The notes under the pieces were generated by a model, which was not told where the DNA came from, made no database searches, and was given only the letters and a program-made list of their open reading frames with translations. The translations under genes were made by a program, and so were the position numbers. 64,000 bases of DNA from Patescibacteria group bacterium (GTDB lineage Bacteria; Patescibacteriota; Microgenomatia; PFEM01; JAHIFH01), in contig DATKWU010000009.1 of NCBI GenBank assembly GCA_035529375.1, positions 157,848-221,847 of the forward strand, in the 5' to 3' direction. Of the stretch, positions 4,618 through 50,163 are shown piece by piece. How positions within the stretch are numbered: position 1 is the stretch's first letter; the number at the start of each line of letters is the position of its first letter.

Positions 4618-5302
4618 ATGGAGTCCAGAAAAATTATCAAAAAGCTAAAATCCCTCTCCAATCCCAAGAATGTTGAGGGAATGATTCGTTTTGGGATTAA
4701 TTCTAAAAATATTTATGGTGTTACTATGCCTTTTTTTAAAGAAAATAGCGAAACAGATTGGCAAAGATCATCAAATATCCCAACAGCTTTGGGATTCTGG
4801 AATTTATGAAGCAAGAATTCTGGCTGGGTTAGTTGGAAAACCAAATAAGGTTACAAAAAGACAAATGGAAAAATGGGTTAATGATTTTGATTCTTGGGGT
4901 GTTTGTGATTCAATTTGCAGTAATCTTTTTGATAAAACTCAATTTGCCTATTCAAAAGCCTTTGAATGGAGCAAAAGAAAAGAAGAATTTATTAAAGGAG
5001 TGGGGTTGGTGATGATAGCTTGTTTGTCAGTTCATGATAAAGAAGCCAATAATAAAAAGTTTGAGCAATTTTTTCCCATTATCAAAAGAGAAGCTGATGA
5101 TCAAAGAAATTTTATTAGAAAAGCGATCAATTGGGCCTTAAGACAGATTGGTAAAAGAAATATTGTTTTGAACAAGAAAGCAATTGTTGTCGCCAAACAA
5201 ATCCAAAAGATGGACTCTAAAAGTGCTAAATGGATTGCTAATGATGCTTTGCGAGAATTAACCAGTGAAGCCGTTCAGAAAAGACTGGTTGCGAAAAAAT
5301 GA
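4618..5302 (+). pseudogene. DNA alkylation repair enzyme (AlkD-like HEAT-repeat glycosylase) disrupted by a +1 frameshift
   Basis: ORF 4618..4809 encodes the family N-terminus (EGMIRFGINSKNIYGVTMPF). ORF 4691..5302, in the +1 frame, continues it (KKIAKQIGKDHQISQQLWDSGIYEARILAGLV...WVNDFDSWGVCDSICSNLF...NFIRKAINWALRQIGKRN). The two frames meet at a T7 homopolymer at 4731..4737, and six T's would restore a single 227-aa ORF. Confidence 0.6.
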
Positions 5303-13810: not shown

Positions 13811-13984
13811 AAAACCTCCATATTAATAATCATTGGCGATTTGGCTTTTGGCAACGGAAAATGGCCGTTAGAAGATAACGGTTTATATCAAATTTAGATA
13901 TAATCTACATTTTTTAGAAGCCATGATTCGTAATACCAACTTCGCCAAAAAAACTAATAATAACTGAATTTCAACAACTTTATT

Positions 13985-14602
13985 TTACCAGTTTTCTAAG
14001 TATTTCGCAATAACTGTTCTAATTACTTCCCAAGAAAAACCGCGCCGAGCCAAAAAAGCCGACATTTTTCGATAAAATTCATTTTTGGACAGGTTTTTAT
14101 AAGTCTTTAATTTCTTTTGGGCTAATTCTTCAGCCAAACGCAATTCACTGACACTCTCAACCGTTTCTTTAATAACAGCCTTATCAATTCCTTTTTGACG
14201 CAATTCCATGGTTAGACCATACTTGCCTCGGGGCCGAAAACTCGTTCTTTGATCAACCCACCAACGGGCAAATTCCCGATCATCTATTTGTTTTAATTCT
14301 TTTAATTTAGCAATTACTTTTTCGGCTACTTTTGAAGATGATTTCTTTTTCTTAAAATAATTGCTGATTTCTTTTTCAGATCGAGGTCGCCTGGAGATTA
14401 AACGAAAAGCCCTATCCAGTAATTTTTGAAATTCATTCTTAAAAATTAAATCATCTATTTGTTTTTGATTTAATTTTTGGCCAATTTTTAAACGGGCTTT
14501 TAAAAAATTATCAGCATCTAAACCAAAAAAGAATTTGCCATCAAGATAAAGATTGACACGCTTTTTGTTTTTTTGGGCTTTGATTTTGGTTACTTGGGGC
14601 AC
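13985..14602 (-). CDS. recX: Regulatory protein RecX
   Basis: 205 aa helical-repeat protein directly downstream of recA, and its N-terminus matches the RecX family pattern. Confidence 0.7.
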   Translation of the reverse strand: MPQVTKIKAQKNKKRVNLYLDGKFFFGLDADNFLKARLKIGQKLNQKQIDDLIFKNEFQKLLDRAFRLISRRPRSEKEISNYFKKKKSSSKVAEKVIAKLKELKQIDDREFARWWVDQRTSFRPRGKYGLTMELRQKGIDKAVIKETVESVSELRLAEELAQKKLKTYKNLSKNEFYRKMSAFLARRGFSWEVIRTVIAKYLENW

Positions 14603-32278: not shown

Positions 32279-33035
32279 AGCGCCTCTTTCTGCCTTTAAT
32301 GATTAACTTATCACTATATTTCTTTGATTTTCGCGTCTTTTTCCCTAAGGTCTTTTTTCCCCAAGGTGACTTAGGGCTAGGCATACCAATCCCGGAACGA
32401 CCTTCACCACCACCGTGCGGATGAGAACTGGGATTTTGGGCCACTCCTCGAACCGAGGGGCGAATCCCCATATGCCTTTTTCTGCCCGCTTTACCTAATT
32501 TTCTGGTTTTCAATTCTGGCTTACCAACCTGACCAACAGTGGCGTAACAATCTTCCTTAATTAATCTTTGCTCGCTTGATGGTAATTTGACAATAACATA
32601 ACCTTTTTCCTTACTGGCAATCGTTGCCCCAGTACCCGCGCCGCGAACAATTTGACCACCCTTACCTGGCATTAACTCGATATTGTGGATAACTGTTCCC
32701 ACTCTAATCATCTTTAAGGGTAAGGCATTACCAGGTTTAATTTCCGCTTTTTCACCAGCCATAACCAGATCACCAACTTTTAAACCAACTGGGGTAAGAA
32801 TGTACCTTTTTGCTCCATCCGGATAGTGCAAAAGAGAGATATCGGCTCCACGATTAGGCGAGCATTCAATCGAAACGACTTTAGCTTCGATATCTCTTTT
32901 ATTTCTCCTGAAATCAATTTCCCTCAGAAACCTTTTTTGTCGACCACCCTGGTGGCGAGTTGTTACCTTGCCAAGAGCATTCCTACCCGAATGTTTCTTT
33001 AAGATTTTCTTTAATTTTTTTTCTTTTCTTGCCAT
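32271..33035 (-). CDS. rplB: 50S ribosomal protein L2
   Basis: Match to L2, including the [10 protein letters not shown]... C-terminal region. Confidence 0.9.
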
Positions 33036-33334: not shown

Positions 33335-33981
33335 TATTTCAAAAAAGTCTCTTTTAATTTTTTAATACTTTCTTCCATTAAAACAATCTGTTGATGATTC
33401 AAAACTTGGTAAGTATTAAGCTGATTAGCCTGAACCAACTCAATCCCAACTAGATTCCTTGAAGCCCGAATAACGTTTTCCAAAACTTCTGGCAAAACCA
33501 AAAGAATCTTCACTTTTTTTTCCTTTTTTTCTTTTAAAGGCAAACTCGCAAGAACCGCAGCCATGATCTTAGTCTTTGGTTCCACCTTGCTCAATCCCTT
33601 AACCGCAACTATTTCTTTTTCCTTAAATTTACTTGTTAAAGCGGAAAACAAGGCTTGGCGTTTCATTTTCTTGCTCATTTTCAATTTATAATTTTCCTTG
33701 CCCGTCGGACTGTGAGCCCGACCACCACCAACAAAAATCGGGGCATAACGATCACCGTGACGGGCCCGACCCGTGCCTTTTTGACGCCAAATTTTTCTTC
33801 GGGAACCTGTGACTTCGGCCCGAGTTTTGGTTTTAGCACCGGCTTTTCTTTGATTTGAAAGATAAACCCTAATAGCCTGAGTCATTAAGAGCTGGTTAAT
33901 TTTAGCTTCAAATATCTCTTTAGGTAAACTAACTTGACCTGCCTTTCTACCAGAAATTGTGTAGAGATCTGCTTTAGCCAT
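33334..33981 (-). CDS. rplD: 50S ribosomal protein L4
   Basis: 215 aa protein with the conserved position and an L4 pattern. Confidence 0.85.
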   Translation of the reverse strand: MAKADLYTISGRKAGQVSLPKEIFEAKINQLLMTQAIRVYLSNQRKAGAKTKTRAEVTGSRRKIWRQKGTGRARHGDRYAPIFVGGGRAHSPTGKENYKLKMSKKMKRQALFSALTSKFKEKEIVAVKGLSKVEPKTKIMAAVLASLPLKEKKEKKVKILLVLPEVLENVIRASRNLVGIELVQANQLNTYQVLNHQQIVLMEESIKKLKETFLK

Positions 33982-34870: not shown

Positions 34871-35025
34871 TAGGATTACTCCATTAACTAAATTAGTTTA
34901 ATTTCAATAGGTGTTTAACCTCACCTCCATTACTGAGTATTATAGAAAAATTTAGGATAAAAAGCAAGCTGATTCTTAGTGTAATAGAAAATGTTCGAAC
35001 CGCGACAATTTTAAGAGAAAATTCT

Positions 35026-35721
35026 TTATTTTTTAATCGCTTTTATTAATAGCCTGGTAGGAACAGAAGAATATTTCTTATATTCCGTCAAGTTTTTTTT
35101 GGCTTCTTCGCCCATAGGAATTGGCTCTTCAACAGTCATTAAGTCAAAACCAGAATTTATTGTTGTATTAATGTAATCTGAAATCTTTTTCGGATGATAT
35201 TCAATTTCTGTTCCCCAAGGCGTTTTTTCTATCTTTACTTTATTACTGAAGTATTCTGAATGATTAGTAACAAACCGAAGTGGGTGAATAGCAATAAGAA
35301 ATAGATATCCTCCTCTTACTAACCATCTGGAGATATTCTCCATTGTTTTCTTAAAATCCTTTTGACTTAAGTAATTAAAAGTCATATTACTTACGACAAG
35401 GTCTAAGCTTTCACTCCGTAGTTTTAAATTAGGCAAGTCTGCCTGTATAAGTTTCACATTAGGAAAAGACTTTCGGGTGATATTTAGCATATCGGAACTT
35501 ATGTCAGTTCCGATAAGATTTTTTTCCTGCACTCCCAAATCGAAAAGAAGTTTCATTGTTCTCCCAGCCCCACAACCAGCATCAAGAACCTGCATATCAC
35601 TTTTCAATATTGGTTTTAAGTGCTTTTCTATTGCTGGTTTTTCTATAAATTTCCAACTAAATGATTTCTCTGAAAACTGGACATACTTGGCGGCTTGGGC
35701 GCCTGAATACTTTATTTTCAT
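35026..35721 (-). CDS. Class I SAM-dependent methyltransferase
   Basis: Motif I VLDAGCGAGR and a DISSDM acidic motif II region. Length is 231 aa. Confidence 0.6.
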   Translation of the reverse strand: MKIKYSGAQAAKYVQFSEKSFSWKFIEKPAIEKHLKPILKSDMQVLDAGCGAGRTMKLLFDLGVQEKNLIGTDISSDMLNITRKSFPNVKLIQADLPNLKLRSESLDLVVSNMTFNYLSQKDFKKTMENISRWLVRGGYLFLIAIHPLRFVTNHSEYFSNKVKIEKTPWGTEIEYHPKKISDYINTTINSGFDLMTVEEPIPMGEEAKKNLTEYKKYSSVPTRLLIKAIKK

Positions 35722-35753
35722 GGGGCTAATTATACTTGAAAAACAAATTATAT

Positions 35754-36965
35754 TCAGTCAACAAAAGTCAGGGCTACACCCTTTTTTCCCATTCTTCCTG
35801 TTCTACCTATCCGATGGACATAATCACCATATGTTCTTGGTACGTCATAGTTGATGACATGAGTCACATTCTCTATGTCAATCCCTCTGGAAGCCACATC
35901 TGTCGCCAGTAAAATCTGAACCTCATTATTCTTTAACATATTCAAAGCCCGCAACCTCTGTCCCTGGCTCTTGTTACCATGAATCGCCGCAGCTTTGAAA
36001 CCTCTCTGGGTTAGATTTGCTTCAAGCTTGTTCACTCCCCATTTGGTTCGGCCAAAAACCAAAACCTTCCTAAATTCCTCTTTAATCAACAGCTGGTGAA
36101 GAATCTCAAGTTTGTTTTTGCCCCGAGTTCGAATTATGTCTTGATCAACATTTTGAGGAGTCACACCGGTTTTTACCGACACTGTTACTGGATCAACTAA
36201 AAAACTTTGCATAATCACCTCAGTTTCCTTTGGTATCGTTGCCGAGAAGAATAAAGATTGGCGACTCTTTGGTAAAAATGAAATAATATGTCGGATATCG
36301 TTGATAAATCCCATGTCCAACATACGATCAACTTCATCTAAGACCACGTTTCCGTATTGACTTAAGTTCAAAATCCGTCGTCCTTCTAGATCCTTTATCC
36401 TCCCAGGGGTTCCAATCACAAAATTTGGCTGACGTGACAACTCGCGTGCCTGGACATTCAGTGAGGCACCTCCAATACATAGTGTTGAGAAAACTCTCGT
36501 ACCCAAACTAAACAATTTAAATTCGTCTTGAATCTGTGAAGCTAGTTCGCGAGTAGGTGCCACGATTAAAACCTTTTGACTTCGATCTTTTGACACTTTT
36601 GTAATCAAAGGTAGTAAAAAAGCCGCTGTTTTTCCAGTTCCTGTGTTGGCAAGACCAACCAAGTCCCTTCCTTCCAATACGGGAAGTATTGCCTGGTCTT
36701 GAATTGCAGTCGGCTTGTCAAAACCACGCACTAGAATATTCTTTTTTACAGTTTCATCCAAAGGAAAGTCTGAAAAACTATTCGCTGGCACATATGGCAT
36801 TTCGACAACGTCAATAGCCTTTTTGACAAACATAAGTGGGTTCAAGGAAGCACCTTTGCTTCGGTATCTACCTTGACCTCCTGATCTGTTTGGTCGATAT
36901 TGACCAAAAGATCTATTATTCTGCCCGCGAAAACCACGGGAACGATCGCGCTTAAAATTTCTCAT
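35754..36965 (-). CDS. DEAD-box ATP-dependent RNA helicase with an arginine-rich N-terminal leader
   Basis: Q-motif and motif I GLANTGTGKTAAF, motif II VLDEVDRM, SAT, and motif VI HRIGRTGR. The 40-aa N-terminal leader MRNFKRDRSRGFRGQNNRSFGQYRPNRSGGQGRYRSKG is unusual. Confidence 0.85.
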   Translation of the reverse strand: MRNFKRDRSRGFRGQNNRSFGQYRPNRSGGQGRYRSKGASLNPLMFVKKAIDVVEMPYVPANSFSDFPLDETVKKNILVRGFDKPTAIQDQAILPVLEGRDLVGLANTGTGKTAAFLLPLITKVSKDRSQKVLIVAPTRELASQIQDEFKLFSLGTRVFSTLCIGGASLNVQARELSRQPNFVIGTPGRIKDLEGRRILNLSQYGNVVLDEVDRMLDMGFINDIRHIISFLPKSRQSLFFSATIPKETEVIMQSFLVDPVTVSVKTGVTPQNVDQDIIRTRGKNKLEILHQLLIKEEFRKVLVFGRTKWGVNKLEANLTQRGFKAAAIHGNKSQGQRLRALNMLKNNEVQILLATDVASRGIDIENVTHVINYDVPRTYGDYVHRIGRTGRMGKKGVALTFVD

Positions 36966-37135
36966 TTTTATTATATTAATGGCTTTAAAGGAGACGATTT
37001 GAAAAAAGGGGAAGATACGAATACCTAAACCAAATAAACCGACTCAAATCAGTATTAACTACTGATCAATATTTAAAGCTAACGGAAAGCATTGTAACAC
37101 ATCTAATTATCACTGTCAAACTATAGGATATTTGC

Positions 37136-37639
37136 TCACTTTTTCCCTTTAGTATCTTTTTTCTTGACTGGCGTTAACACTTCAATAGCTTTATCTGCTT
37201 TCTTGATTGTTGATTTTTTACTCTTTTTCGCCTTATTCTCTACCAACTTTGGTTTCTTCTCCCCGACCGACGATAGCAAATCAATAATTATATCAAGCCT
37301 GGTATTTAGAATTTCAATTTTTTCTACAAGTTGTGAAATGCTACGACTATTTATATCGCTTTGCGAAGGCCTTCTTGAATCTCTGTCGCCAAAACTTCTT
37401 CTGGGAGAACCTCTTCTGTCTCTTGATCTATCACTATCGCTTCCGCCTTTCTTCTCAAAACAGTCACTGCAATATACTGGCTTCTCACCGCTTGGCCTGA
37501 AGGGTACTTGACAATCCTTGCCACATTCATCGCAAACTGCATTGTGCAATAAAGGCCTTCTTGAATCTCTGTCGCCAAAACTTCTTCTGGGAGAACCTCT
37601 TCTGTCTCTTGATCTATCACCTGGATTAAAGTTTCTCAT
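37136..37639 (-). CDS. Arginine-rich (RSFG-repeat) protein with a CxxC...CxxC zinc ribbon and a Lys-rich coiled-coil tail
   Basis: MRNFNPGDRSRDRRGSPRRSFGDRDSRRP appears twice, flanking CDECGKDCQVPFRPSGEKPVYCSDCF. The N-terminus is homologous to the leader of the downstream DEAD-box helicase. Confidence 0.5.
   Translation of the reverse strand: MRNFNPGDRSRDRRGSPRRSFGDRDSRRPLLHNAVCDECGKDCQVPFRPSGEKPVYCSDCFEKKGGSDSDRSRDRRGSPRRSFGDRDSRRPSQSDINSRSISQLVEKIEILNTRLDIIIDLLSSVGEKKPKLVENKAKKSKKSTIKKADKAIEVLTPVKKKDTKGKK
37367..37620. repeat. Exact 69-bp direct repeat (copies at about 37367..37435 and 37552..37620) inside the arginine-rich gene
   Basis: aaggccttcttgaatctctgtcgccaaaacttcttctgggagaacctcttctgtctcttgatctatcac occurs twice, identically, about 116 bp apart. 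It encodes the duplicated DRSRDRRGSPRRSFGDRDSRRP peptide. Confidence 0.8.
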
Positions 37640-37883
37640 AAATGCTCCTACTAAATATTAAATATATTAGTGAGTATATGTATTATTAGTATAAATAGCA
37701 AGGAATACTGTAAAAAAATGCAAATAATTGATGAAATAGGAACGGTTTTTAAATAGTCTCGATACTCGTAATTTTGGTTATATTAAGTTGTAAACTGCTC
37801 AGGATAATAGAAAATGTTTGAACTGCTGTTCAGACTAAAGAATACGCTTATACTTCTTGTTAAATAAAAGCTTTTTAATAACC

Positions 37884-38930
37884 TTAATCTTTTAAGGCTT
37901 TATCAAAAAAATCTACTGAACGTTGGAGTGCTGTATCTAAGTTATTAGAAAGATTATGATTGTCTCCTTCATAAGTGTATAACTCTACGGGCTTGCCGGC
38001 ATTTCTCAACGCTTCATCTAATCTCTGACTAAACAGGAGTGGTACTTCATCATCTGCCGTCCCATGTTGAAGCTGTATCGGGCCGGAAATGTCTTTGACA
38101 AACGATATGGGTGAAATTGACTGCCAAAACTGGGGATTTTCTTCAAAGTTACCGTATTTATCAATCAGTTCCTGTCTTCCTGGCCGTCTTTCCGCCTGTT
38201 CTCTTTGCGAAGGCACCCAAGGCTGAGGATTATGAACTGGATGATGCCAGTTTATGGCTAAATCTTCATAAGAAGCCACTACTCCTGCCCAGATTTCTCC
38301 TGCCTTAATATCTTCTGTTACTACCATTGAACGCAAAACTATCATTCCTCCCATAGAATGACCCCACATGCCGATTCTTTCTGGGTCAGCATCTTTATAT
38401 TTTTTCATCGATGAAACAGCATTCAAAACATCTACTGTATAGGCTGATGAATAATAAGCGCCTTCTGGTTTGCCTTCTGAATTGCCGTGCCCCCTAAAAT
38501 CGGGTTTAAAAACAAGATATCCATTCCTGGAGAAAGCATCAATGTAAGCAACATATTTCTCGGTTGTTCTATACTGTTCTGGTTGAATGTAGCCGTGGTT
38601 AAAAACAATCACCGGCCAGCCGGTCTCAGGTTGTTCTCCTTGTGGTATCGTTAACAGAGCATAAATTTTTAAACCGTCTGATTTATAAGAAGCAATGTAT
38701 CTATTGTAATTTGAGCCGGGAGGCAGTGTCTGTTCGATAACAATATCGCTTCCGGGGTATTCCTGCTTCCTCATATATTCTATGGAGAGAGAGTTGGGTT
38801 CGTTTGTCAATCCGCCGAGGTTCTGCTCATTTATTTCTTTGGGAATACTTTTAAAGAAGCGGTTATAAGTGATAGTGCCGCCGAATATACATACAACAAT
38901 AATAGAAATAACAAGAGTACGTTTTCTCAT
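37884..38930 (-). CDS. Secreted or membrane-anchored alpha/beta hydrolase (prolyl-oligopeptidase/S9 or dienelactone-hydrolase-like)
   Basis: N-terminal TM/signal segment TLVISIIVVCIFGG and a nucleophile elbow GHSMGG, with later Asp/His residues (GTADDEV, GDNHNL). A TATAAT box lies 12 nt upstream with no SD. Confidence 0.6.
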   Translation of the reverse strand: MRKRTLVISIIVVCIFGGTITYNRFFKSIPKEINEQNLGGLTNEPNSLSIEYMRKQEYPGSDIVIEQTLPPGSNYNRYIASYKSDGLKIYALLTIPQGEQPETGWPVIVFNHGYIQPEQYRTTEKYVAYIDAFSRNGYLVFKPDFRGHGNSEGKPEGAYYSSAYTVDVLNAVSSMKKYKDADPERIGMWGHSMGGMIVLRSMVVTEDIKAGEIWAGVVASYEDLAINWHHPVHNPQPWVPSQREQAERRPGRQELIDKYGNFEENPQFWQSISPISFVKDISGPIQLQHGTADDEVPLLFSQRLDEALRNAGKPVELYTYEGDNHNLSNNLDTALQRSVDFFDKALKD

Positions 38931-39076
38931 TTTGCACAAAAAAAATTATTATACCAGGTTTTTCTGACAAAATCATAAAGAAAATTACTTCTGGTTTTTG
39001 AAGATTTTAAGTTTGTGCAGGAATTGAGGGAGGAAATAAAAAAACTAACCTCTCAAGAGGCATTAATAGGCTGTTG

Positions 39077-39745
39077 TTAATTACTCAGCCTATTTCCCCT
39101 CCCTGGATGGGCCGGAACCTGTGCGCCAGCAAACCAATCATTGATTCCGTTATATAAAGATTGGGCAATCTGCTGTTGCCGGTTTCCAGTACCATCAGTT
39201 AATAAACCACATTCAGTCATATTTGATATAAAAGCTACTTCCTGAATAGTGGCGGGCATTTCCGCTTTAAGAATTACTCCAGAGGCAAACTGCAATAATC
39301 CTCCATTGCCAATTCCCAAGCTCGGATATAGTTGATTATGGATTGTCGAGGCTAAATCAATGTCTTTTTTCCATTTAGCGTACAATCCTTGAGTGTAATT
39401 CAATTCATGGTCGGTTGAACCGTTGAAATGAATGGAAACCAGAATTTCACCATCTGTATTGTTGGCAAGAGTGTATCTATCTCTATTGGTCATATAGACA
39501 TCGCTTTCTCTAGTCATGTAAACTGTTACATCGGGCTCAAGCAGTGCTTTTAGCCTTTTTGCTACATCTAAATTTGCATCAGCCTCTGATAAACCAGGAC
39601 ACTCCATTGAACCAGGCTCATCGCCGCCGTGTCCAGCGTCAATGACTATTTTGTGGCCAGTTGCCTCTGCCGTATTGGAAACAAACACTAATGACGCAAC
39701 CCACAATAACAAAACCAAAACAAGAAATACTATTTTTTTATTCAT
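39077..39745 (-). CDS. N-acetylmuramoyl-L-alanine amidase (Amidase_3 family) with a signal peptide
   Basis: KIVIDAGHGGDEPG zinc-site motif and SIHFNG. The start is at the ATG (MNKKIV...) downstream of the AAAGGGGGTGA SD. Confidence 0.7.
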   Translation of the reverse strand: MNKKIVFLVLVLLLWVASLVFVSNTAEATGHKIVIDAGHGGDEPGSMECPGLSEADANLDVAKRLKALLEPDVTVYMTRESDVYMTNRDRYTLANNTDGEILVSIHFNGSTDHELNYTQGLYAKWKKDIDLASTIHNQLYPSLGIGNGGLLQFASGVILKAEMPATIQEVAFISNMTECGLLTDGTGNRQQQIAQSLYNGINDWFAGAQVPAHPGRGNRLSN

Positions 39746-39775
39746 CCATTTCACCCCCTTTCAAACACTAGTTTT

Positions 39776-40378
39776 TTATCTGTAAAACAGTCTGATAAGC
39801 CAGCCGAAAATACTTCCGACCTGCTCTTCTGCCTGAATCTGCTCTTCTAAACTCGTATTCTGCTCAACCAGAGCCTGAATCGCTTCCTCAAGTTGGGTTT
39901 CATCAGCCTGGTTAGCTACTTGGTTTTGCAGTTGAGTTAACTGCCGGATTCTAAGCTGATTTTGTTCCATTTGTTGCTTGAGGTTTTTGATGGCTCCGTA
40001 GTCAGGACCAAACAACTTTTTCATTAAACCTGACCTGGATTCCAATTTGTTCAATTGAGTCTGAGTCTGTGTTTGAGTCTGGACCTGTTCCTGGGCAATA
40101 TTTCTTACCTGACTGCCGACTTCCTCATTTAAACCTTCCATGTCCATTAACTGCTCCATGTGCTGTGTGGCCACCTGCAATTGGGTTTCTTCTCCTTGAT
40201 TTTGAGTTTGGACCTGATTTTGATTCTGAACTTGGTTGCCTTGGGGAGTTGGCGAACCGCTAAGGTGGGTAGATGGGTCCTGGACTTTATTTTGCTGCTG
40301 GACTCCTTGAGCTGATACAAAAGAGGGAACAAGTATTAACGCTAACGCGATTATTGATGTTGCAATCAATTTCTTCAA
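39776..40378 (-). CDS. Secreted Gln-rich coiled-coil protein with a C-terminal hydrophobic tail
   Basis: Signal peptide KKLIATSIIALALILVPSFVSA, QTQTQTQ tracts and a C-terminal SIFGWLIRLFYR. A probable TTG start lies 8 nt after AAGGAGGTG. Confidence 0.45.
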   Translation of the reverse strand: MKKLIATSIIALALILVPSFVSAQGVQQQNKVQDPSTHLSGSPTPQGNQVQNQNQVQTQNQGEETQLQVATQHMEQLMDMEGLNEEVGSQVRNIAQEQVQTQTQTQTQLNKLESRSGLMKKLFGPDYGAIKNLKQQMEQNQLRIRQLTQLQNQVANQADETQLEEAIQALVEQNTSLEEQIQAEEQVGSIFGWLIRLFYR

Positions 40379-40607
40379 TTTTCTCACCTCCTTTTCCAGT
40401 AATTTTACTATATTTTACCTCAAGTTAAAGAAATTTATAAGTTTTAACTCTACTCTACAAAGTTAAAATATTAAAAACCTCTCATTATCTATAATTCGGC
40501 CAGTGAATTTAGCCAGACAGTCTTTCAAGGCTTTAAATAGGCGCGGGAATTGAGAAAGGAAATTGATAGGGTTAAAAACCCTACCACAATACCCGCAATT
40601 ATCTAAT

Positions 40608-41312
40608 TCACTCGTTATAAAGCTCTTGAATTCCTAGCCAGTCTCCGGTTCCTAAGGTTTGCTTATCAATCTCTCCGTAACCGCTATATCCATACATGGT
40701 CAACGCCGTGCTTGGCGGCATGTATAAGTCACTTAATCCATTGTGCCCGAATTCATGAGTGGCAATGTTTTGCAGGTCCATTTTGCCGCTTTCACCAGCC
40801 AAACTCCAAGTGAAACCTGTACTAAATACAACATCAGATTCTACTATAATTTTTAATGCTGGATTATACCAAAATTGATTTACTGCAATAATTCCTGATC
40901 CTAGACTTCCCCATGTTACTGTATTAGTATAATCTCTGTTTTCATTAAAACTTACGCTATCATCTAACTCTGGTGTTGCAAAAAGCTCAAATGAAGTTTC
41001 AATATCCCATGTTTCTAAACTTTCGCTTAGAGTAGCTATCACTTCATTTTCATTTAAGTAGCTTCCATAGGGGTTCACTTCATAAGTCATGGTGTCGGCC
41101 CACCTTATTCCACCGGCAATGAATTTGAATTTATCTACCGTGTCATCCCAAACTGGTTTGGAATTTTTAGCAGATTTTGCGTAGTGAATAAAGGTTATTT
41201 TTTCTAAATCCGGCGGAGTGGTTTCTGGTTTTCCTGGCTGTTCTTTTGCCAATACCGGAAAAGCTAAAGCCAAAAACAGCAAACAACTAGCTCCAATTAA
41301 AAATTTCCTCAT
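40608..41312 (-). CDS. Secreted zinc metalloprotease, metzincin-like with a snapalysin-type HExxHxxGxxD site
   Basis: Signal peptide, then HEFGHNGLSDLY and a Met-turn TALTMYGY. The start is at MRKFLIG after the AAAGGGGGTGA SD. Confidence 0.6.
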   Translation of the reverse strand: MRKFLIGASCLLFLALAFPVLAKEQPGKPETTPPDLEKITFIHYAKSAKNSKPVWDDTVDKFKFIAGGIRWADTMTYEVNPYGSYLNENEVIATLSESLETWDIETSFELFATPELDDSVSFNENRDYTNTVTWGSLGSGIIAVNQFWYNPALKIIVESDVVFSTGFTWSLAGESGKMDLQNIATHEFGHNGLSDLYMPPSTALTMYGYSGYGEIDKQTLGTGDWLGIQELYNE

Positions 41313-41388
41313 ATATTTGTTCACCCCTTTCTAAACACTAAAATTGCTAAATAATCTTACGCGAAAATCGCAAAAGAATATCTATAAA

Positions 41389-41592
41389 TTAGTTCAGAGG
41401 TCCCCAAGGTCCAGCCGGGGCTTCATCCTCCATGTCAAATCGACAACGAGCCTCAGGGCCCCAAGGACCGGACCGATGTTCCGTGCAGTCGCCATCTTCA
41501 GGCTGGCTGGCCGCCATAACGCTCACGCTGAGTACCGACATGATTACTGTCATCAACAGCCCCACGGCCACAATGAAAGTTAATTTCTTCAT
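41389..41592 (-). CDS. Small secreted Cys-containing peptide precursor (67 aa) with GPWGP repeats
   Basis: MKKLTFIVAVGLLMTVIMSVLSVSVMA | ASQPEDGDCTEHRSGPWGPEARCRFDMEDEAPAGPWGPLN. It has the same AAAGGGGGTGA SD as its neighbours, and its GC content is markedly higher than the flanking DNA. Confidence 0.45.
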   Translation of the reverse strand: MKKLTFIVAVGLLMTVIMSVLSVSVMAASQPEDGDCTEHRSGPWGPEARCRFDMEDEAPAGPWGPLN

Positions 41593-41623
41593 TTTATTCA
41601 CCCCCTTTCAATTTCAAATTTTC

Positions 41624-41650
41624 AATAAAAAATCCGCATAAAAGCGGATT
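41624..41650 (-). terminator. Rho-independent terminator downstream of the 2H-phosphoesterase gene
   Basis: The minus strand reads AAUCCGC-UUUUAU-GCGGAUU followed by UUUUUAUUG. It lies only about 25 nt upstream of the peptide gene's SD. Confidence 0.5.
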
Positions 41651-41932
41651 AATAAATTTTCTTTGAATTGGGCAGGCAAGTGACTTGCCTCATTAGTCAG
41701 ACGATAACAAGTTTTTCACGAATAGTCAACCAGCGGGTCAATCGAGATGTAAATAGTAAAAATGAAGCCCATCTAGTTTTAGCCTCATAATTCCCTTACA
41801 ACTAGGGGATTTTATTAGAGGCGATTTAAGGCTAGTTTCTGCCTGAAGTTTTAAACCAAAGCTAACTTGGGTATATTAAATTCCAACTAGCTCACCCGAT
41901 GGGACGATTTTCGAACCTTTATAAAATATTAC

Positions 41933-42487
41933 TTAATAGAAAGTTATTTCTCGAAGCATACCCCATGACTTTGCGTCTGTTGCTTTTTTAAATACAAATA
42001 TTGACTCAACCTTAAAGGAAAACACATTGTTAAAATTTTTTAATTCCTTTTTAATCTTAGGAAGTGAGTTGTTTGGTATTTTCTCCGCAATAGTCATATG
42101 AGGATTAAACTTGTCAGGAGTTGGACTATATTCACTGTAAACACTTTTTGTATAACCTTCTAAGAACTTAACAGTTTTTACTAGTAAGTTAATAATATAT
42201 TTAGACGATTTAGAATCAGGTTTTACAAACGCAACATTATTTCTACCTTTAAAATAATCAATTGAATTAAGAGTAACTTCACCACATTTCGTTTTAGAAA
42301 AGTCGTTTACAAGTTTTGTAAGAAATCGTCTTTCCGTAATACCTTTTAAAAAGAATGGTGGATATACGGTAATGTGTGAGGGAATAGTGTAACTTGTGTA
42401 TTTTGCATACAATCTGCGATATTTATCCATTGTTTTAATAACTTCTTTTGGAGGGAGAATGACTATTAGGTAAGAGTAAGAGTTCAT
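41933..42487 (-). CDS. 2H phosphoesterase superfamily protein (LigT/cyclic-phosphodiesterase-like)
   Basis: Two H-x-T-x motifs (PSHITVYP and NPHMTIAE) with appropriate spacing. The gene is AT-rich and has a leaderless-type promoter. Confidence 0.5.
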   Translation of the reverse strand: MNSYSYLIVILPPKEVIKTMDKYRRLYAKYTSYTIPSHITVYPPFFLKGITERRFLTKLVNDFSKTKCGEVTLNSIDYFKGRNNVAFVKPDSKSSKYIINLLVKTVKFLEGYTKSVYSEYSPTPDKFNPHMTIAEKIPNNSLPKIKKELKNFNNVFSFKVESIFVFKKATDAKSWGMLREITFY

Positions 42488-42637
42488 ACGTGAAGTATAT
42501 CATCTGAGGCTAAAGGTCGTGGCTCGAGGATCTTAACGCTAATATAACCAGTCAATTCGTGCGTATTTTCAAGGTATTTGAGGATTCCAAGTTTATCAGT
42601 CAACTACAGGAAGAAATGAATAGAGTGATACCAGCAG

Positions 42638-43042
42638 TCAATCTTTCAAGTGGTACGATTCGTTCATCCATTCAATGATTTCATCGTCTATTTCTTGCTT
42701 GCTGCTTATATCAAAACAATTCTTATATACCATGCTGGACATTGGTACACATACTTTCAACCTTGGGCTATCAAGTTTTCTATCTAATGCAAACCTTATC
42801 TCTAACCTATCATTTTTAGGTAACGCTGCCAAAAAGTCATATTTACCAAACAAATGAACACAGCAAGGAATAGAAATTATTTTGCATTTACCAATCTTGC
42901 TGTCAATTTGTTCTACTAAAAAGTCAAACAGCTTTTTTGCTTGCTTCTTACCTACAAAATGCTTTTGCAAAGGAATCTTTTTACAACTATGAGGTTGGTT
43001 GGCGCCTCTGAAAATTCGTTTGCATTTAGGACACGTCCACAT
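42638..43042 (-). CDS. Hypothetical protein with an N-terminal C2HC zinc finger
   Basis: MWTCPKCKRIFRGANQPHSC. A TACAAT box ends 6 nt before the ATG. Confidence 0.4.
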   Translation of the reverse strand: MWTCPKCKRIFRGANQPHSCKKIPLQKHFVGKKQAKKLFDFLVEQIDSKIGKCKIISIPCCVHLFGKYDFLAALPKNDRLEIRFALDRKLDSPRLKVCVPMSSMVYKNCFDISSKQEIDDEIIEWMNESYHLKD

Positions 43043-43260
43043 GGTTCAATTGTACTAGTTTTATCAGGAAATGATAAATGGAAGGTTATATTAAAGACTA
43101 TTCGACTAATTTAATTTCATGGCTAAATTTCTTTATGCTCCCCAAACCAAAAGATATTATATCCAAGGTTTTAGGCACAATTCTTACTGCTTTTGAGGAT
43201 GTAAACCAGATGGAAGTGATTAAAGTGAGGTGGGAGGAGATAAAGAAGTTACAGCCACAA

Positions 43261-43545
43261 CTAGCGACTTCCTAGTTTTTTTATCCTCTCAGCTAATAAA
43301 CCAGTTAATGAACCTATCCCAAACCAGAAAATTCCAACAAAAAGAACATTAAAAATAAAATTGTCAGAAAATGCTCGGCAACAGGTTTCAAAAATCTCTT
43401 CAAAAATGATTGAGGGAATAACCATCCAAAATAAAATACTTATTTTACCTCCAGTAATGAGTCCGAAGAGTAACCCCAAAACTATCAAGACTGGAAAAAT
43501 CATAACTCCGGAAACTAACCAATAAGGTAAGTTTTTAAGTTTCAT
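43261..43545 (-). CDS. Small membrane protein
   Basis: 94 aa with three predicted TM helices and a leaderless-type promoter (TGATATAAT 4 nt before the ATG). Confidence 0.4.
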   Translation of the reverse strand: MKLKNLPYWLVSGVMIFPVLIVLGLLFGLITGGKISILFWMVIPSIIFEEIFETCCRAFSDNFIFNVLFVGIFWFGIGSLTGLLAERIKKLGSR

Positions 43546-43648
43546 TATTTTAATTATATCAGAAGTTCGAAGGGCAACACTTGGTATATTAAAAACGAGA
43601 CTAAATTTCTAAGCCCTCCCTTGCGGACGATGTTCTAACTAGCCTATT

Positions 43649-44050
43649 TTAGTAGATTTTTTTTCGAAGATGTGTTAAATAGGCAGAAAAAATTGTTGTT
43701 AAAAGTTGCAAGAAAGGAGAAATAACAACCATCAAGACTAACCATCCCCAAAAACTAGCAACTGGAGTAAAAAGTATTAGAGGTTCACCAAAATTAGCAA
43801 TATCTTTTGTAGAGTCTAAACAATATGGCAACATCGCTAATAACCAAATAACAGCAAGGATTAAAAAGGTAAATAACGAGGCGAAGATTGAATATCTAAA
43901 AACCTTCCGCTCATCAATAAAATTACGAGCAAGAAAATATCCCAGAGGAAAACCTAAAAGTATATTAAAAAACGGGACTCCCATGCCCATGCCTATACAA
44001 ATAATGTCAATTGCCAGATAACCTAAAATCCATTTTTTCTTTATTTTCAT
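43649..44050 (-). CDS. Small membrane protein
   Basis: 133 aa with four predicted TM helices. It has a classical SD (AAGGAGG) and a TATAAT box after the upstream terminator. Confidence 0.45.
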   Translation of the reverse strand: MKIKKKWILGYLAIDIICIGMGMGVPFFNILLGFPLGYFLARNFIDERKVFRYSIFASLFTFLILAVIWLLAMLPYCLDSTKDIANFGEPLILFTPVASFWGWLVLMVVISPFLQLLTTIFSAYLTHLRKKIY

Positions 44051-44140
44051 TTTTCCTCCTTATGCCAATATTTTACATCAATCTTATAAAAGACTAAACC
44101 ATGTCCAGGGTGGGGTGGTAGATGGAAATTATTATAACCA

Positions 44141-44183
44141 ACAAAAAAGGACGTAGTATCGGAATAATTTGATACCTGCGTCC
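44141..44183 (-). terminator. Rho-independent terminator after the 172-aa hypothetical gene
   Basis: The minus strand reads GGACGCAGGUAUC...GAUACUACGUCC followed by UUUUUUGUUGG. Confidence 0.5.
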
Positions 44184-44258
44184 AACCGAGCTCCCCCTAA
44201 AGGACCTATTCTGCAACCAAGAACTAGAATTTGATTTGAGCCTACAGGAAGTTAAAAC

Positions 44259-44777
44259 TTACTTTCTAGTCCAACTCGCTGATTGACTCATTGTTACGCT
44301 CAATCTATCTCCATATAGACACATCTCATCTATCACAACTCGATACTCCAGTGCACTTTCTATCATTGATTTAAGATAAATTGCTACAGGCAGAGTTCCA
44401 TCGCTTTCTTGTCCGAAAGCTTCTAATACTCGTATTCGTGTGTCCTTATCTGTATGGATAACTACACTTTCTTCGCTAGAAAGAACTCCTTGAGAATCAT
44501 TCTTCACTCTACCCTCTATTACCAGGCCGACCCTTTCTTTGGGGTTATCGAGGTCTGAAACTGTATATGGTGTAAGGAGGTATAAACCGTCTTGTGTAAC
44601 TTCGGCCACAAAATTAGACAGAAGAACCGGATGGTCCTCAGAGTCATCAATCTCAGCCTGCCTTTTGAATAACTCGTGTAGTTCATCCATGGTTAGAGAA
44701 TATTCACCTCTGCTTTTTTCCGCCACAACCTCTATTAAAGCAATGTGCACTGGTCTTAACTCTGGTCTCTCAGGCAT
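44259..44777 (-). CDS. Hypothetical protein
   Basis: 172 aa acidic soluble protein with higher GC than its neighbours and an extended -10 (TGATATACT) ending 8 nt before the ATG. Confidence 0.4.
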   Translation of the reverse strand: MPERPELRPVHIALIEVVAEKSRGEYSLTMDELHELFKRQAEIDDSEDHPVLLSNFVAEVTQDGLYLLTPYTVSDLDNPKERVGLVIEGRVKNDSQGVLSSEESVVIHTDKDTRIRVLEAFGQESDGTLPVAIYLKSMIESALEYRVVIDEMCLYGDRLSVTMSQSASWTRK

Positions 44778-44879
44778 GTCCGAAGTATATCAAATCTGAA
44801 GCTAAAATCCTAGCTCCCCACGGTATACAGGCTTCGAGACTGGCTAACAGACAACTTTTTAGATATTCCGGCTCTAAGA

Positions 44880-45272
44880 CTAAGCGTTGCTATCTAAGAA
44901 TTGCTTAAGCGCTTGCAGGTCTTTTTTATCGGGGTCGTAATAATATGAGGTTATACCGAGCGATTGAGCGCTTTTTGTTGCTTCTGGACTGTGTTCAAAA
45001 TAGACAACATCTTCCGGTTGGAGGCTAAAGTGTTCTAGCATTTTCCTAAAATACTCGGGGTCAGTCTTTTCCGGATTGTGCTTTAGTGTAAAAACCTCAT
45101 AGGGCATTTTGTCCAAGCCAAACTTCTTAAATTGCTTATCGTTCGCGCCGGTTAAGATTATTTTTTGATTTGGAAAGCCCTCAAGAAGATCGTGCATTTC
45201 CTTAAAAATCTTAAAGGCATCCTTACCCTTAACCACAAAAGCGCCAATTGCGTCTACTAAAATAGTTTTCAT
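44880..45272 (-). CDS. Hypothetical protein, possibly a degenerate HAD-like fold
   Basis: ILVDAIGAF (a weak DxDG-like motif I) and a VVYFEHSPEATKSAQSLGI motif III/IV-like stretch. The assignment is tentative. Confidence 0.3.
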   Translation of the reverse strand: MKTILVDAIGAFVVKGKDAFKIFKEMHDLLEGFPNQKIILTGANDKQFKKFGLDKMPYEVFTLKHNPEKTDPEYFRKMLEHFSLQPEDVVYFEHSPEATKSAQSLGITSYYYDPDKKDLQALKQFLDSNA

Positions 45273-45347
45273 AATTGAAGTATAACAAAAAGCGTTTTAG
45301 GGTTACATTCTATGCTCCGCGAACAGGACTCGAACTAATATTAAAAT

Positions 45348-49169: not shown

Positions 49170-49526
49170 CTAATAACCTCGCTCTTTCCCTAGGCTTCTT
49201 GTTTCCTTAAGCAATTCTTGTTGAATCTCATTATCTTCCGTTTCGAAATGATGGCCGCTTGCAAAATTTCTTACTTCCATCATCCCAAATATCCCTGAAC
49301 CATCAAAAACAACAAAAATGTCATGTTGAGGTAATCTGTAATTACCTACGACCCTATTAGTTTGGTGGTGTTCAATACAAAGTTCGGCTAAATCACCTTC
49401 AGCCCTGATAACAAGTCTATTTCTCGCCCAAGCAACCATCTCACTCTTTCTAAGGGAAAGTGGGCCTTCCATTTCGTCCCAACAATCCCGACAGATTGCT
49501 TTTACTTTAGGTTTTCTAATCGACAT
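49170..49526 (-). CDS. Hypothetical protein
   Basis: 118 aa ORF with no recognised motif. It is unusually placed between rpsG and fusA. Confidence 0.4.
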   Translation of the reverse strand: MSIRKPKVKAICRDCWDEMEGPLSLRKSEMVAWARNRLVIRAEGDLAELCIEHHQTNRVVGNYRLPQHDIFVVFDGSGIFGMMEVRNFASGHHFETEDNEIQQELLKETRSLGKERGY

Positions 49527-49587
49527 AAACTAAAAAATTGCTTTTGGGCAGGCAATAAAATAAAAATAATAGAATCCTGACTTCTAC

Positions 49588-50163
49588 TCAAGAACCTCTT
49601 TGTCGGTAAAGCTTGGGATCAATCACCTTTGCCATAGCTTGAGTATCAAGAGTTCCATCTAAAAATTGGTTAATCTTTTTTACTTGACTCGCTGGCTTTT
49701 TCAAAACTTGATTATAGTCAATATAGATGACTTCAATATTGGGCTGTTTTCCCAACCATAATTTGGCCTCTTTTAAATGCTTTTTGAATAAGGCAGCCAT
49801 CTTCTTATCACTGGCTTTATTTACTGGCTTACCTCTTCTTTTAAGCATTTGTCTTTGGGAAGCAAGAATCTCTTCCATCTTCCGTTGCATAAAAATTACT
49901 TTGTAATTGTAGCTTCTGGGTAAATATTTTAAGAATTCAGAAACCATCTTGACGGTCTTACCTTGAGCCTGTTTAAGCCAAGTTTTATCCCGCCTAATTT
50001 GTTTAACTTTTTCAAATTCATAATAACCCTTAGGATTATCTTCATCGGCCTTTCTCAAATTATCCGTCAAAACAGATATCCCACCGGCTTTCATCATCTT
50101 CATCATCATTGAGGTACCAGAACGAGGTAAACCAGAAACAATCGTAATCGTTTTTTGTTTCAT
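49588..50163 (-). CDS. Sulfotransferase-family-like P-loop protein
   Basis: IVSGLPRSGTSMMMKMM resembles the PAPS-binding 5'-PSB motif (PKSGTT) of Stf0-type sulfotransferases. A small nucleotide kinase is the alternative reading. Confidence 0.5.
   Translation of the reverse strand: MKQKTITIVSGLPRSGTSMMMKMMKAGGISVLTDNLRKADEDNPKGYYEFEKVKQIRRDKTWLKQAQGKTVKMVSEFLKYLPRSYNYKVIFMQRKMEEILASQRQMLKRRGKPVNKASDKKMAALFKKHLKEAKLWLGKQPNIEVIYIDYNQVLKKPASQVKKINQFLDGTLDTQAMAKVIDPKLYRQRGS

Follow-up and report, generated by a model that had tools for sequence, protein, structure and literature searches.

What, if anything, is encoded by a short GC-rich reading frame that lies beside the gene for a secreted metalloprotease in a patescibacterial genome? 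The frame is found in a stretch of 64,000 nucleotides, called the window hereafter, and its position and that of the protease gene are as follows.

41389..41592, minus strand: open reading frame of 67 codons from ATG to TAA, with the precursor MKKLTF...GPWGPLN by translation
40608..41312, minus strand: gene for a secreted M10 (matrixin-like) metalloprotease with HEFGHNGLSD, the Met-turn LTMYGY and the Shine-Dalgarno sequence GAAAGGGGTGAA

A preliminary description of this locus had proposed a small gene for an exported peptide, and such a gene does look genuine in its extended Shine-Dalgarno sequence, in its signal-peptide character and in the synonymous differences between its two GPWGP strings. 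What that description stated as fact is borne out throughout. The explanation preferred here, with modest confidence, is an orphan, lineage-restricted gene for a small Sec-exported peptide, which probably opens a two-gene unit that has the M10 gene as its second cistron.

The product of the frame, MKKLTFIVAVGLLMTVIMSVLSVSVMAASQPEDGDCTEHRSGPWGPEARCRFDMEDEAPAGPWGPLN, matches exactly the 67-residue precursor and the 40-residue acidic tail with two cysteines and two copies of GPWGP that had been described at first. An identical protein of 67 aa is recorded in NCBI, JGI, ENA and Logan, and it is labeled as a hypothetical protein from a Patescibacteria MAG. The precursor can be divided into two parts.

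41512..41592, minus strand: signal-peptide-like N-terminus of 27 aa (heuristic scan)
41392..41511, minus strand: predicted mature peptide of 40 aa (composition calculation)

The N-terminus starts with MKK, continues with an uncharged hydrophobic core of 22 residues, LTFIVAVGLLMTVIMSVLSVSV, and ends with VMA followed by A, so that the putative cleavage site after VMA is compatible with the -3/-1 rule. According to a heuristic based on the charge of the n-region, the h-region and small residues at -3 and -1, it has the features of a type I (Sec) signal peptide, and single-sequence AF2 places a helix at residues 2-28 of the precursor with pLDDT of 85-92. A non-cleaved signal anchor may be an alternative to a cleaved signal peptide here. 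A lipoprotein (type II) signal peptide was also considered and rejected, as there is no lipobox, residues 1-35 contain no cysteine, and the first cysteine is residue 36.

The predicted mature peptide has a mass of 4.37 kDa, a pI of 4.2 and a net charge of -6, and Pro, Gly, Glu and Asp are abundant in it. Its two cysteines, at positions 36 and 50 of the precursor with 13 residues between them, correspond to Cys9 and Cys23 of the mature form, and the sequence around Cys50 is EARCRFDME. In AF2 this part has pLDDT of about 50-57 and no secondary structure, and it is thus predicted to be unstructured. The GPWGP string occurs twice.

41455..41469, minus strand: first copy of GPWGP, encoded by GGT CCT TGG GGC CCT, within the Cys9-Cys23 segment
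41398..41412, minus strand: second copy of GPWGP, encoded by GGA CCT TGG GGA CCT

At the DNA level the two copies form a direct repeat of 15 nt with 13/15 identity, and both differences fall on synonymous third positions, for which the probability by chance, from position alone, is about 0.06, a weak piece of evidence.

Is this frame really translated? One indication lies just in front of it.

41597..41609, minus strand: Shine-Dalgarno sequence GAAAGGGGGTGAA, ending 4 nt upstream of the ATG

The exact 13-mer GAAAGGGGGTGAA is found only twice in the window, upstream of this frame and upstream of the amidase gene (39750-39762), while 100 dinucleotide shuffles contain no match at all. It had been suggested that a special Shine-Dalgarno sequence is shared with both the protease and the amidase; this is true to the letter for the amidase, and the M10 gene has GAAAGGGGTGAA. 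Another indication comes from applying the signal-peptide heuristic to 472 ATG-started variants of reading frames of at least 40 aa, taken from all six frames of the whole window. A signal- or TM-like N-terminus was obtained for 12 of the 472, every one of them on the minus strand, which is the gene strand, and its combination with a Shine-Dalgarno sequence is limited to the amidase, the M10 protease, one other secreted protein and the peptide frame. In addition, the GC content of the signal-peptide part by codon position is 0.41/0.30/0.70, which is a periodicity of the coding type in the frame of the peptide. Taken together, we regard it as rather likely that the frame is a real, translated gene.

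The most conspicuous property of this frame is its base composition. The preliminary description had stressed its GC richness, and indeed the highest GC content over 120 nt in the 64-kb window, 0.64 against 0.38 for the window overall, is located at 41395 inside the frame. Elsewhere a GC content of at least 0.58 is reached only in RNase P, in tRNA-Pro and in four other patches; by their coordinates, two of the four (32357-32489 and 33700-33822) lie within rplB and rplD. To what extent does this richness merely reflect the amino acids encoded? If the peptide is back-translated with the codon usage of the window, a GC content of 0.477 +/- 0.019 is obtained while 0.554 is observed. Codons ending in G or C number 38/66, compared with 24.6 expected from the codon usage of the window (z about 3.8), and GC3 is 0.58 in this frame against 0.32 +/- 0.04 in 54 long reading frames of the window, whose maximum is 0.45. 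About half of the GC excess thus comes from amino-acid composition and the remainder from synonymous codons ending in G or C. Since the neighboring genes of the cassette are ordinary in GC3 (0.32-0.45), the compositional anomaly is real and restricted to this frame, whose choice of codons is foreign to the rest of the genome.

Such foreign composition has another side. The frame might have arisen by chance, or be a decaying remnant, in a short piece of GC-rich foreign DNA and yield no functional product, a possibility to which we give a minor but appreciable weight. A GC3 well beyond the range of the genome is what it would lead us to expect; so is the disorder predicted for the mature part, and so are the two antisense frames, which are largely open as well. 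In AT-rich genomes, GC-rich tracts stay open in several frames. A chance frame, however, has to be reconciled with a perfect extended Shine-Dalgarno sequence at the correct spacing and identical to that of a real neighboring gene, with a canonical tripartite signal peptide of a kind otherwise confined to the coding strand, with codon-position periodicity of the coding type, and with two GPWGP copies that differ only synonymously, while the antisense frames have neither a Shine-Dalgarno sequence nor a family match. Could one of those antisense frames be the real gene instead? As had been stated, reading frames are present on the opposite strand at 41344..41583 and 41432..41641, and both are open for 69-79 codons. 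Their starts, however, have no Shine-Dalgarno sequence, the sequence there being the complement of minus-strand Shine-Dalgarno sites or of coding sequence; they match no Pfam family; and the neighboring genes are all on the minus strand. A GC-rich tract is expected to leave long antisense frames open as a side effect, and a gene on the opposite strand is extremely improbable. Thus, a translated gene on the minus strand is still the preferred interpretation.

How would this gene be transcribed? The following elements are found around it.

41701..41729, minus strand: promoter-like site TTGACT-17-TATCGT with TG (consensus match only)
41674..41690, minus strand: hairpin of 7 bp, AGGCAAG-TCA-CTTGCCT, possibly part of a leader
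41631..41650, minus strand: intrinsic-terminator-like hairpin AATCCGC-TTTTAT-GCGGATT with a T-run behind it; it separates the LigT-like gene from the peptide frame
41348..41384, minus strand: AU-rich imperfect hairpin in the spacer between the peptide frame and the M10 gene, not scored as a terminator
40564..40586, minus strand: terminator-like hairpin after the M10 gene, likely the 3' end of a two-gene unit

The LigT-like gene lies upstream of the frame and the M10 gene downstream. The latter begins 76 nt after the stop codon of the peptide on the same strand, in agreement with the adjacency reported before, no terminator is called in this 76-nt spacer, and hairpins resembling terminators flank the pair. 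The peptide and M10 genes are therefore probably co-transcribed. A terminator hairpin had been placed about 25 nt upstream of the Shine-Dalgarno sequence; it is indeed there, at a distance of 21 nt (41650-41631), and an alternative pairing is possible between its 5' arm and the Shine-Dalgarno sequence. No evident promoter is seen between this hairpin and the Shine-Dalgarno sequence of the frame. The promoter-like site, the 7-bp hairpin and the terminator could form a leader of roughly 100 nt, in which, judging from the possible pairings, a switch between the terminator and a helix sequestering the Shine-Dalgarno sequence may take place.

If the leader is so structured, one may ask whether RNA is what matters at this locus. 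The GC-rich stretch and the leader would then constitute a cis-element, or an upstream reading frame, that controls M10, and the peptide itself would be irrelevant. The leader (41696-41586) folds better than shuffled sequences, with z of -3.0 to -3.8, and its capacity to alternate between a terminator and a sequestering helix would suit such control. Moreover, an M10 homologue in another Patescibacterium (L008) is located behind a c-di-GMP-II riboswitch, whose 58.6 bits exceed the gathering score (53.5), and leader-based control thus exists in this protease family. No such riboswitch is seen in the leader in the window when searched with Rfam, a further 20 bacterial M10 loci lack it too, and control of the present operon by c-di-GMP was set aside. 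The GC-rich region of the frame, however, folds no better than shuffles (z of -1.8 on one strand and -1.7 on the other), and Rfam applied to 41250-41950 with E values up to 10 gives nothing approaching a family cut-off; the best match overlapping the frame is IS605-orfB-I at 41543-41721, which at 17 bits stays short of its cut-off of 94. For the 308-nt spacer upstream, the folding z is -2.2. With gathering thresholds, Rfam finds only RNase P and tRNA-Pro in the window. Leader peptides are also unlike a 67-codon frame with a full signal peptide. A purely regulatory RNA element at this locus is hence given very little probability.

Does the peptide have relatives? No credible one was found among 15 billion predicted proteins or in DNA of metagenomes, viruses, plasmids and phages. 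When 5.8 billion protein clusters were searched through a word index, the peptide itself was the sole result. At the DNA level, where gene calls play no part, neither tblastn against plasmids and phages nor scanning viral and metagenome contigs for the back-translated pattern gave a relative, and phmmer against PDB sequences gave no match. That no family is recognized for the peptide, as had been noted at the beginning, holds for both Pfam and NCBIfam: in a Pfam scan with E values up to 10 no family appears, ankyrin and TSP_1 included, and in an NCBIfam scan with E values up to 0.01 nothing appears for Inh/AprI. A degenerate DNA pattern for C-x2-H-x2-GPWGP-x3-C gave 8 matches in metagenome contigs, all of which fall in GC-rich contigs, in junk frames that lack a signal peptide. 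Comparison within the lineage gives no help either. Five loci from contigs carrying the peptide (L001-L005) agree with the window in every position (100% identity) across as much as 20 kb, so that dN/dS is impossible to calculate and no conservation signal is available. It is to be admitted that a singleton without relatives is also what would be expected of a chance frame.

An exhaustive phmmer search of 1.84 billion representatives added three weak matches, P0122, P0123 and P0124, and these deserve some comment. P0122 and P0123 are eukaryote-like ankyrin proteins of 1500-1900 aa, with a repeat-summed alignment of DGDTPLHLAAPWGHSEA against DGDCTEHRSGPWGPEA. The ankyrin repeat is a helix-turn-helix of 33 residues that occurs in tandem arrays, and membership of the peptide, a single secreted 40-mer without a profile match, was rejected. 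In P0124, a secreted Cys-rich metagenomic protein of 240 aa with four repeats, the spacing C-x2-H-x2-GP-x-GP-x2-R-C is identical to that in the peptide and the alignment of CTEHRSGPWGPEARC against CGDHIGGPTGPNYRC has 9/19 identities. Each of its repeats, however, has four cysteines in about 50 aa, and P0124 itself does not belong to a recognized family. Its library-wide E value of 1e-4 comes from four near-identical repeats summed up. The significance of all three matches originates in such summation, while the 20-25 bits of a single repeat are too low for a library of this size, and they are treated here as chance matches that appear to be non-homologous, with the motif of P0124 recorded as a curiosity. 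A further likeness is found in thrombospondin type-1 repeats (TSRs), which are about 55 aa long with six cysteines and a WxxWxxW ladder. The literal GPWGP is contained in the thrombospondin type-1 repeat of ADAMTS4, GGWGPWGPWGDCSRTCGGG (PMC9620172). As in that repeat, a cysteine follows three residues after GPWGP in the peptide, and Trp and Arg that could stack are present. With only two Trp, two Cys and no match to TSP_1 (PF00090), however, the likeness is that of a five-residue string.

If the peptide has no relatives, where did its gene come from? The region in which it is located may tell something about this.

34968..45313, no strand assigned: accessory island containing the peptide frame, between rpsJ and rplC
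39776-40387, minus strand: Gln-rich secreted protein
39077-39745, minus strand: Amidase_3 cell-wall amidase
39077..40387, minus strand: rest of the secreted-protein cassette, comprising these two genes

In the contigs that carry the peptide, which come from a Microgenomates (CPR) bacterium, a hypervariable island of ~10 kb lies between the tuf-rpsJ genes and rplC, and nucleotide alignment sets its bounds at about 34968-45313, with flanks 90-94% identical to those of L092. The closest relatives were picked by ranking EF-Tu homologues. In genomes with 88-89% EF-Tu identity (L093, L095, L096 and L107), rpsJ is directly followed by rplC, and in one with 91% identity (L105) the site is occupied by just one gene, which has the opposite orientation. 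Microgenomates RBG_19FT_COMBO_39_10, which has 97% EF-Tu identity (L091/L092), has a different island of ~6.7 kb with only a methyltransferase in common. The genes neighboring the frame are likewise absent from the closest relatives. Thus, the frame lies within a strain- or species-specific accessory block. It had been proposed from the GC richness that the coding sequence is of different origin or under strong constraint, and the foreign composition and the strain-specific location both fit a different origin.

The block is a mosaic. Its rpsJ-proximal part (41933-45272) has a GC content of 30-36%, and its genes seem to be leaderless, with the extended -10 element TGnTATAMT just upstream of the ATG, while the cassette for secreted proteins (37884-41592) has a GC content of 40-47% and uses Shine-Dalgarno sites. 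Signal or anchor sequences are found on five consecutive products, namely the peptide, the M10 protease, the Gln-rich protein, Amidase_3 and a membrane-anchored S9-type hydrolase that adjoins the cassette. Location in a mosaic, recently assembled island also speaks in part for the chance frame described above, to be set beside the features of the frame itself. A defense island was considered as well and rejected, because PADLOC finds in the surroundings only a generic DEAD-box helicase and a methyltransferase.

Then, what would the peptide do, if it is made? According to the explanation preferred here, a single transcript would carry both cistrons, and the precursor would leave the cell through Sec, cleavage after VMA then releasing, at the cell surface, a very acidic, Pro/Gly-rich and flexible 40-mer of 4.4 kDa. 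The redox state of the surroundings would decide whether its two cysteines, Cys9 and Cys23, are present as free thiols or are joined, with the first GPWGP enclosed in a loop of 15 residues. From the position of the gene, the likeliest role would be an extracellular one linked to the M10 protease expressed along with it. A stoichiometric partner or inhibitor, which holds M10 latent or targets it, is our preferred guess, though a doubtful one. A dedicated substrate of M10 ranks next; the roles of substrate and signal are improbable even when counted jointly. The remaining probability goes to another extracellular role or to no function.

The protease itself is one of a subfamily in which HEFGHNGLxD is invariant and a Met-turn is present, and which CPR bacteria have in common with many archaea of the DPANN and methanogen groups; its nearest homologue is only 64% identical. 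If the peptide were a conserved partner of this family, comparable genes should accompany other members. The genomic contexts of P0012, P0009, P0023, P0003 and P0004 and 80 genome loci were inspected for this purpose, and a small upstream frame with a signal peptide and cysteines occurs in 0 of the 80+ loci of M10 homologues, with tblastn also empty. Upstream of the closest homologue (L108) there is a gene of 75 aa that has neither a signal peptide nor cysteine and is unrelated. The peptide is therefore not a conserved partner of the M10 protease family, and it is adjacency alone from which a partnership in this strain may be suggested. Adjacency of M10 to Amidase_3, on the other hand, recurs in L006 and L010.

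Precedents for such a partnership can be sought among known regulators of metalloproteases. Inh/AprI (MEROPS I38) are inhibitors of serralysins (M10B), encoded beside the protease and forming beta-barrels of about 100 aa, and to our knowledge they are the sole well-known paradigm of a protease with an adjacent cognate small protein in the M10 family. The peptide resembles them in being a small exported product whose gene lies beside an M10 gene with no terminator called between the two, but it is only 40 aa long, predicted to be disordered, without a profile match and not conserved together with the protease. Another model is the cysteine switch in the pro-domain of MMPs, PRCGxPD. Here again, a cysteine of the peptide follows Arg (ARC) and is associated with a matrixin-type catalytic domain, and a free thiol of the peptide could in principle cap the catalytic zinc. 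The motif in the peptide is, however, ARCRFD and is carried by a separate polypeptide, while in the M10 protein a conserved segment at the N-terminus, EKITFxHY..., probably acts as a pro-region of its own. It is imaginable, though improbable, that the peptide is the first known case of a new class, encoded in trans and serving the matrixin-like proteases of CPR and DPANN as regulators or as dedicated substrates. An acidic 40-mer with Cys, His and Trp would then keep the protease latent via a thiol or His-zinc contact, or, alternatively, the protease would cleave the peptide at the GPWGP sites during interaction with a host cell.

The relationship between the two products might also be the reverse, that is, M10 might act on the peptide for the sake of the peptide. 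The precursor would then be a Sec-dependent signaling pro-peptide or antimicrobial, trimmed outside the cell by M10 into an active short form. In its size, with a signal peptide and a short tail, the precursor may resemble the Sec-exported pro-peptides of Gram-positive bacteria, an extracellular protease is encoded next door, and the repeated GPWGP could mark processing sites. Sec-dependent class II bacteriocins have a cationic mature peptide and an adjacent immunity gene. The present peptide was rejected as one of them, as it is acidic (pI 4.2, -6), unlike these pore-forming peptides, and its neighbors encode a LigT-like protein and M10. An RRNPP-type signaling pro-peptide was also rejected, no gene for a TPR-type receptor or regulator being present within the island. 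The acidic charge and a neighborhood without genes for a receptor, regulator, immunity protein or transporter make both a bacteriocin and a quorum signal less likely, and no family match points to either. Hence such a pro-peptide has only a slim probability, and the orphan exported peptide co-expressed with M10 is preferred over it.

Should the peptide be produced and have an effect on the protease, it would offer a way into the control of secreted hydrolases in ultra-small episymbiotic bacteria, which presumably aim these enzymes at the envelopes of host cells or at their own, and a very small modulator would join the known repertoire for metalloproteases. Orphan small secreted reading frames in variable islands are common in CPR genomes, and nothing in the observations on the peptide contradicts this expectation. 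The peptide is best filed among such orphan small secreted proteins of Patescibacteria, as it is short, has a signal peptide but no homologues, and is encoded beside hydrolases in a strain-variable region; it is set apart from them only by its GC-rich codon usage and its repeated GPWGP. In terms of general interest, the peptide may be outranked by the 10-kb island itself, which splits the otherwise tightly conserved junction between rpsJ and rplC.

In the subfamily to which the secreted matrixin-like M10 metalloprotease encoded at 40608-41312 (minus strand) belongs, the motif HEFGHNGLxD is invariant, its third His being replaced by Asp (alignment A1 of the subfamily; loci L011-L090, which carry M10 homologues), and an N-terminal segment, EKITFxHY, is also conserved across the members in A1. 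The subfamily is common to CPR bacteria and to archaea, namely DPANN, Altiarchaeota and methanogens. Because it thus spans domains, among small-celled or episymbiotic lineages, horizontal transfer is suggested. An Amidase_3 gene adjoins the M10 gene again at two further loci with homologues, L006 and L010.

How is such a protease controlled? At locus L008, a riboswitch of the c-di-GMP-II class (RF01786; 4794-4877), whose 58.6 bits exceed the gathering score, is accompanied by a terminator (4861-4890) and lies directly 5' of an M10 homologue with 60% identity to that of the window; the riboswitch is also found at L009. This position directly upstream of the homologue suggests that the secreted M10 protease is under second-messenger control in at least one Patescibacterium. 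The riboswitch was found neither in the window nor at 20 other bacterial M10 loci.

In the window, the M10 gene is preceded by the orphan peptide ORF (41389-41592, minus strand), and 41593-41729 (minus strand), just 5' of that ORF, is a structured leader (folding z -3.0 to -3.8). Elements of the leader and of the spacer of 340 nt that precedes the peptide gene are as follows.

Within 41593-41729, minus strand: promoter-like site, followed by the hairpin and then the terminator of the leader
41690-41674, minus strand: 7-bp hairpin of the leader
41650-41631, minus strand: terminator of the leader
Within 41668-41809, plus strand: 40-codon ORF without a Shine-Dalgarno site (SD), which stops 2 nt short of the plus-strand terminator-like hairpin
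41792-41809, plus strand: terminator-like hairpin in the spacer

An alternative pairing is possible in which the 5' arm of the leader terminator pairs with the SD, and the leader may act as an attenuator or else represent a small RNA whose 3' end lies at the terminator. The spacer as a whole has a folding z of -2.2, with zero matches in Rfam.

Many genes of the window lack an SD and have instead an extended -10-like TGnTATAMT whose end is just 6-9 nt from the ATG (for example, those starting at 42487, 43545, 44777, 45272, 36965, 38930 and 51160), and this combination suggests that leaderless mRNAs are widespread. Unlike these genes, the secreted-protein cassette uses an SD variant, GAAAGGGG(G)TGAA, which also stands upstream of a 163-aa gene in the island of the relative with 97% EF-Tu identity (L092 15376-15386). 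One cassette member, flanked by the M10 and amidase genes, encodes a secreted, very Gln-rich protein of about 200 aa with QNQVQTQ-type repeats (39776-40387, minus strand), for which no family match was found. Its called length is 203 aa in L004/L005 versus 200 aa in L001-L003, the DNA being identical.

In this Microgenomates lineage the rpsJ-rplC junction, contiguous as a rule, is a hypervariable site of insertion, as seen when the window is compared with L091/L092, L093, L095, L096, L105 and L107. In the window the two genes are separated by 10.3 kb that hold about 15 others (34968-45313), and the 97% relative (L091/L092) has about 6.7 kb of other content, a methyltransferase being the only gene in common; a single gene lies there in the 91% relative, and nothing is inserted in the 88-89% relatives. 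Neither an integrase nor a flanking repeat was found. A second variable junction is rpsG-fusA (window 49170-50163; L092 6693-7686; L095 3799-7678), where the window and L092 have a sulfotransferase and a 118-aa gene between S7 and EF-G, and L095 has a glycosyltransferase/deacetylase block in their place. Inside the rpsJ-rplC island, a perfect 69-nt direct repeat, with copies 186 nt apart (about 37552-37620 and 37366-37434; 13973-14041 and 14159-14227 in L001, a contig identical to the window), falls entirely within the gene at 37136-37639 for a 167-aa CxxC-x17-CxxC zinc-ribbon protein.
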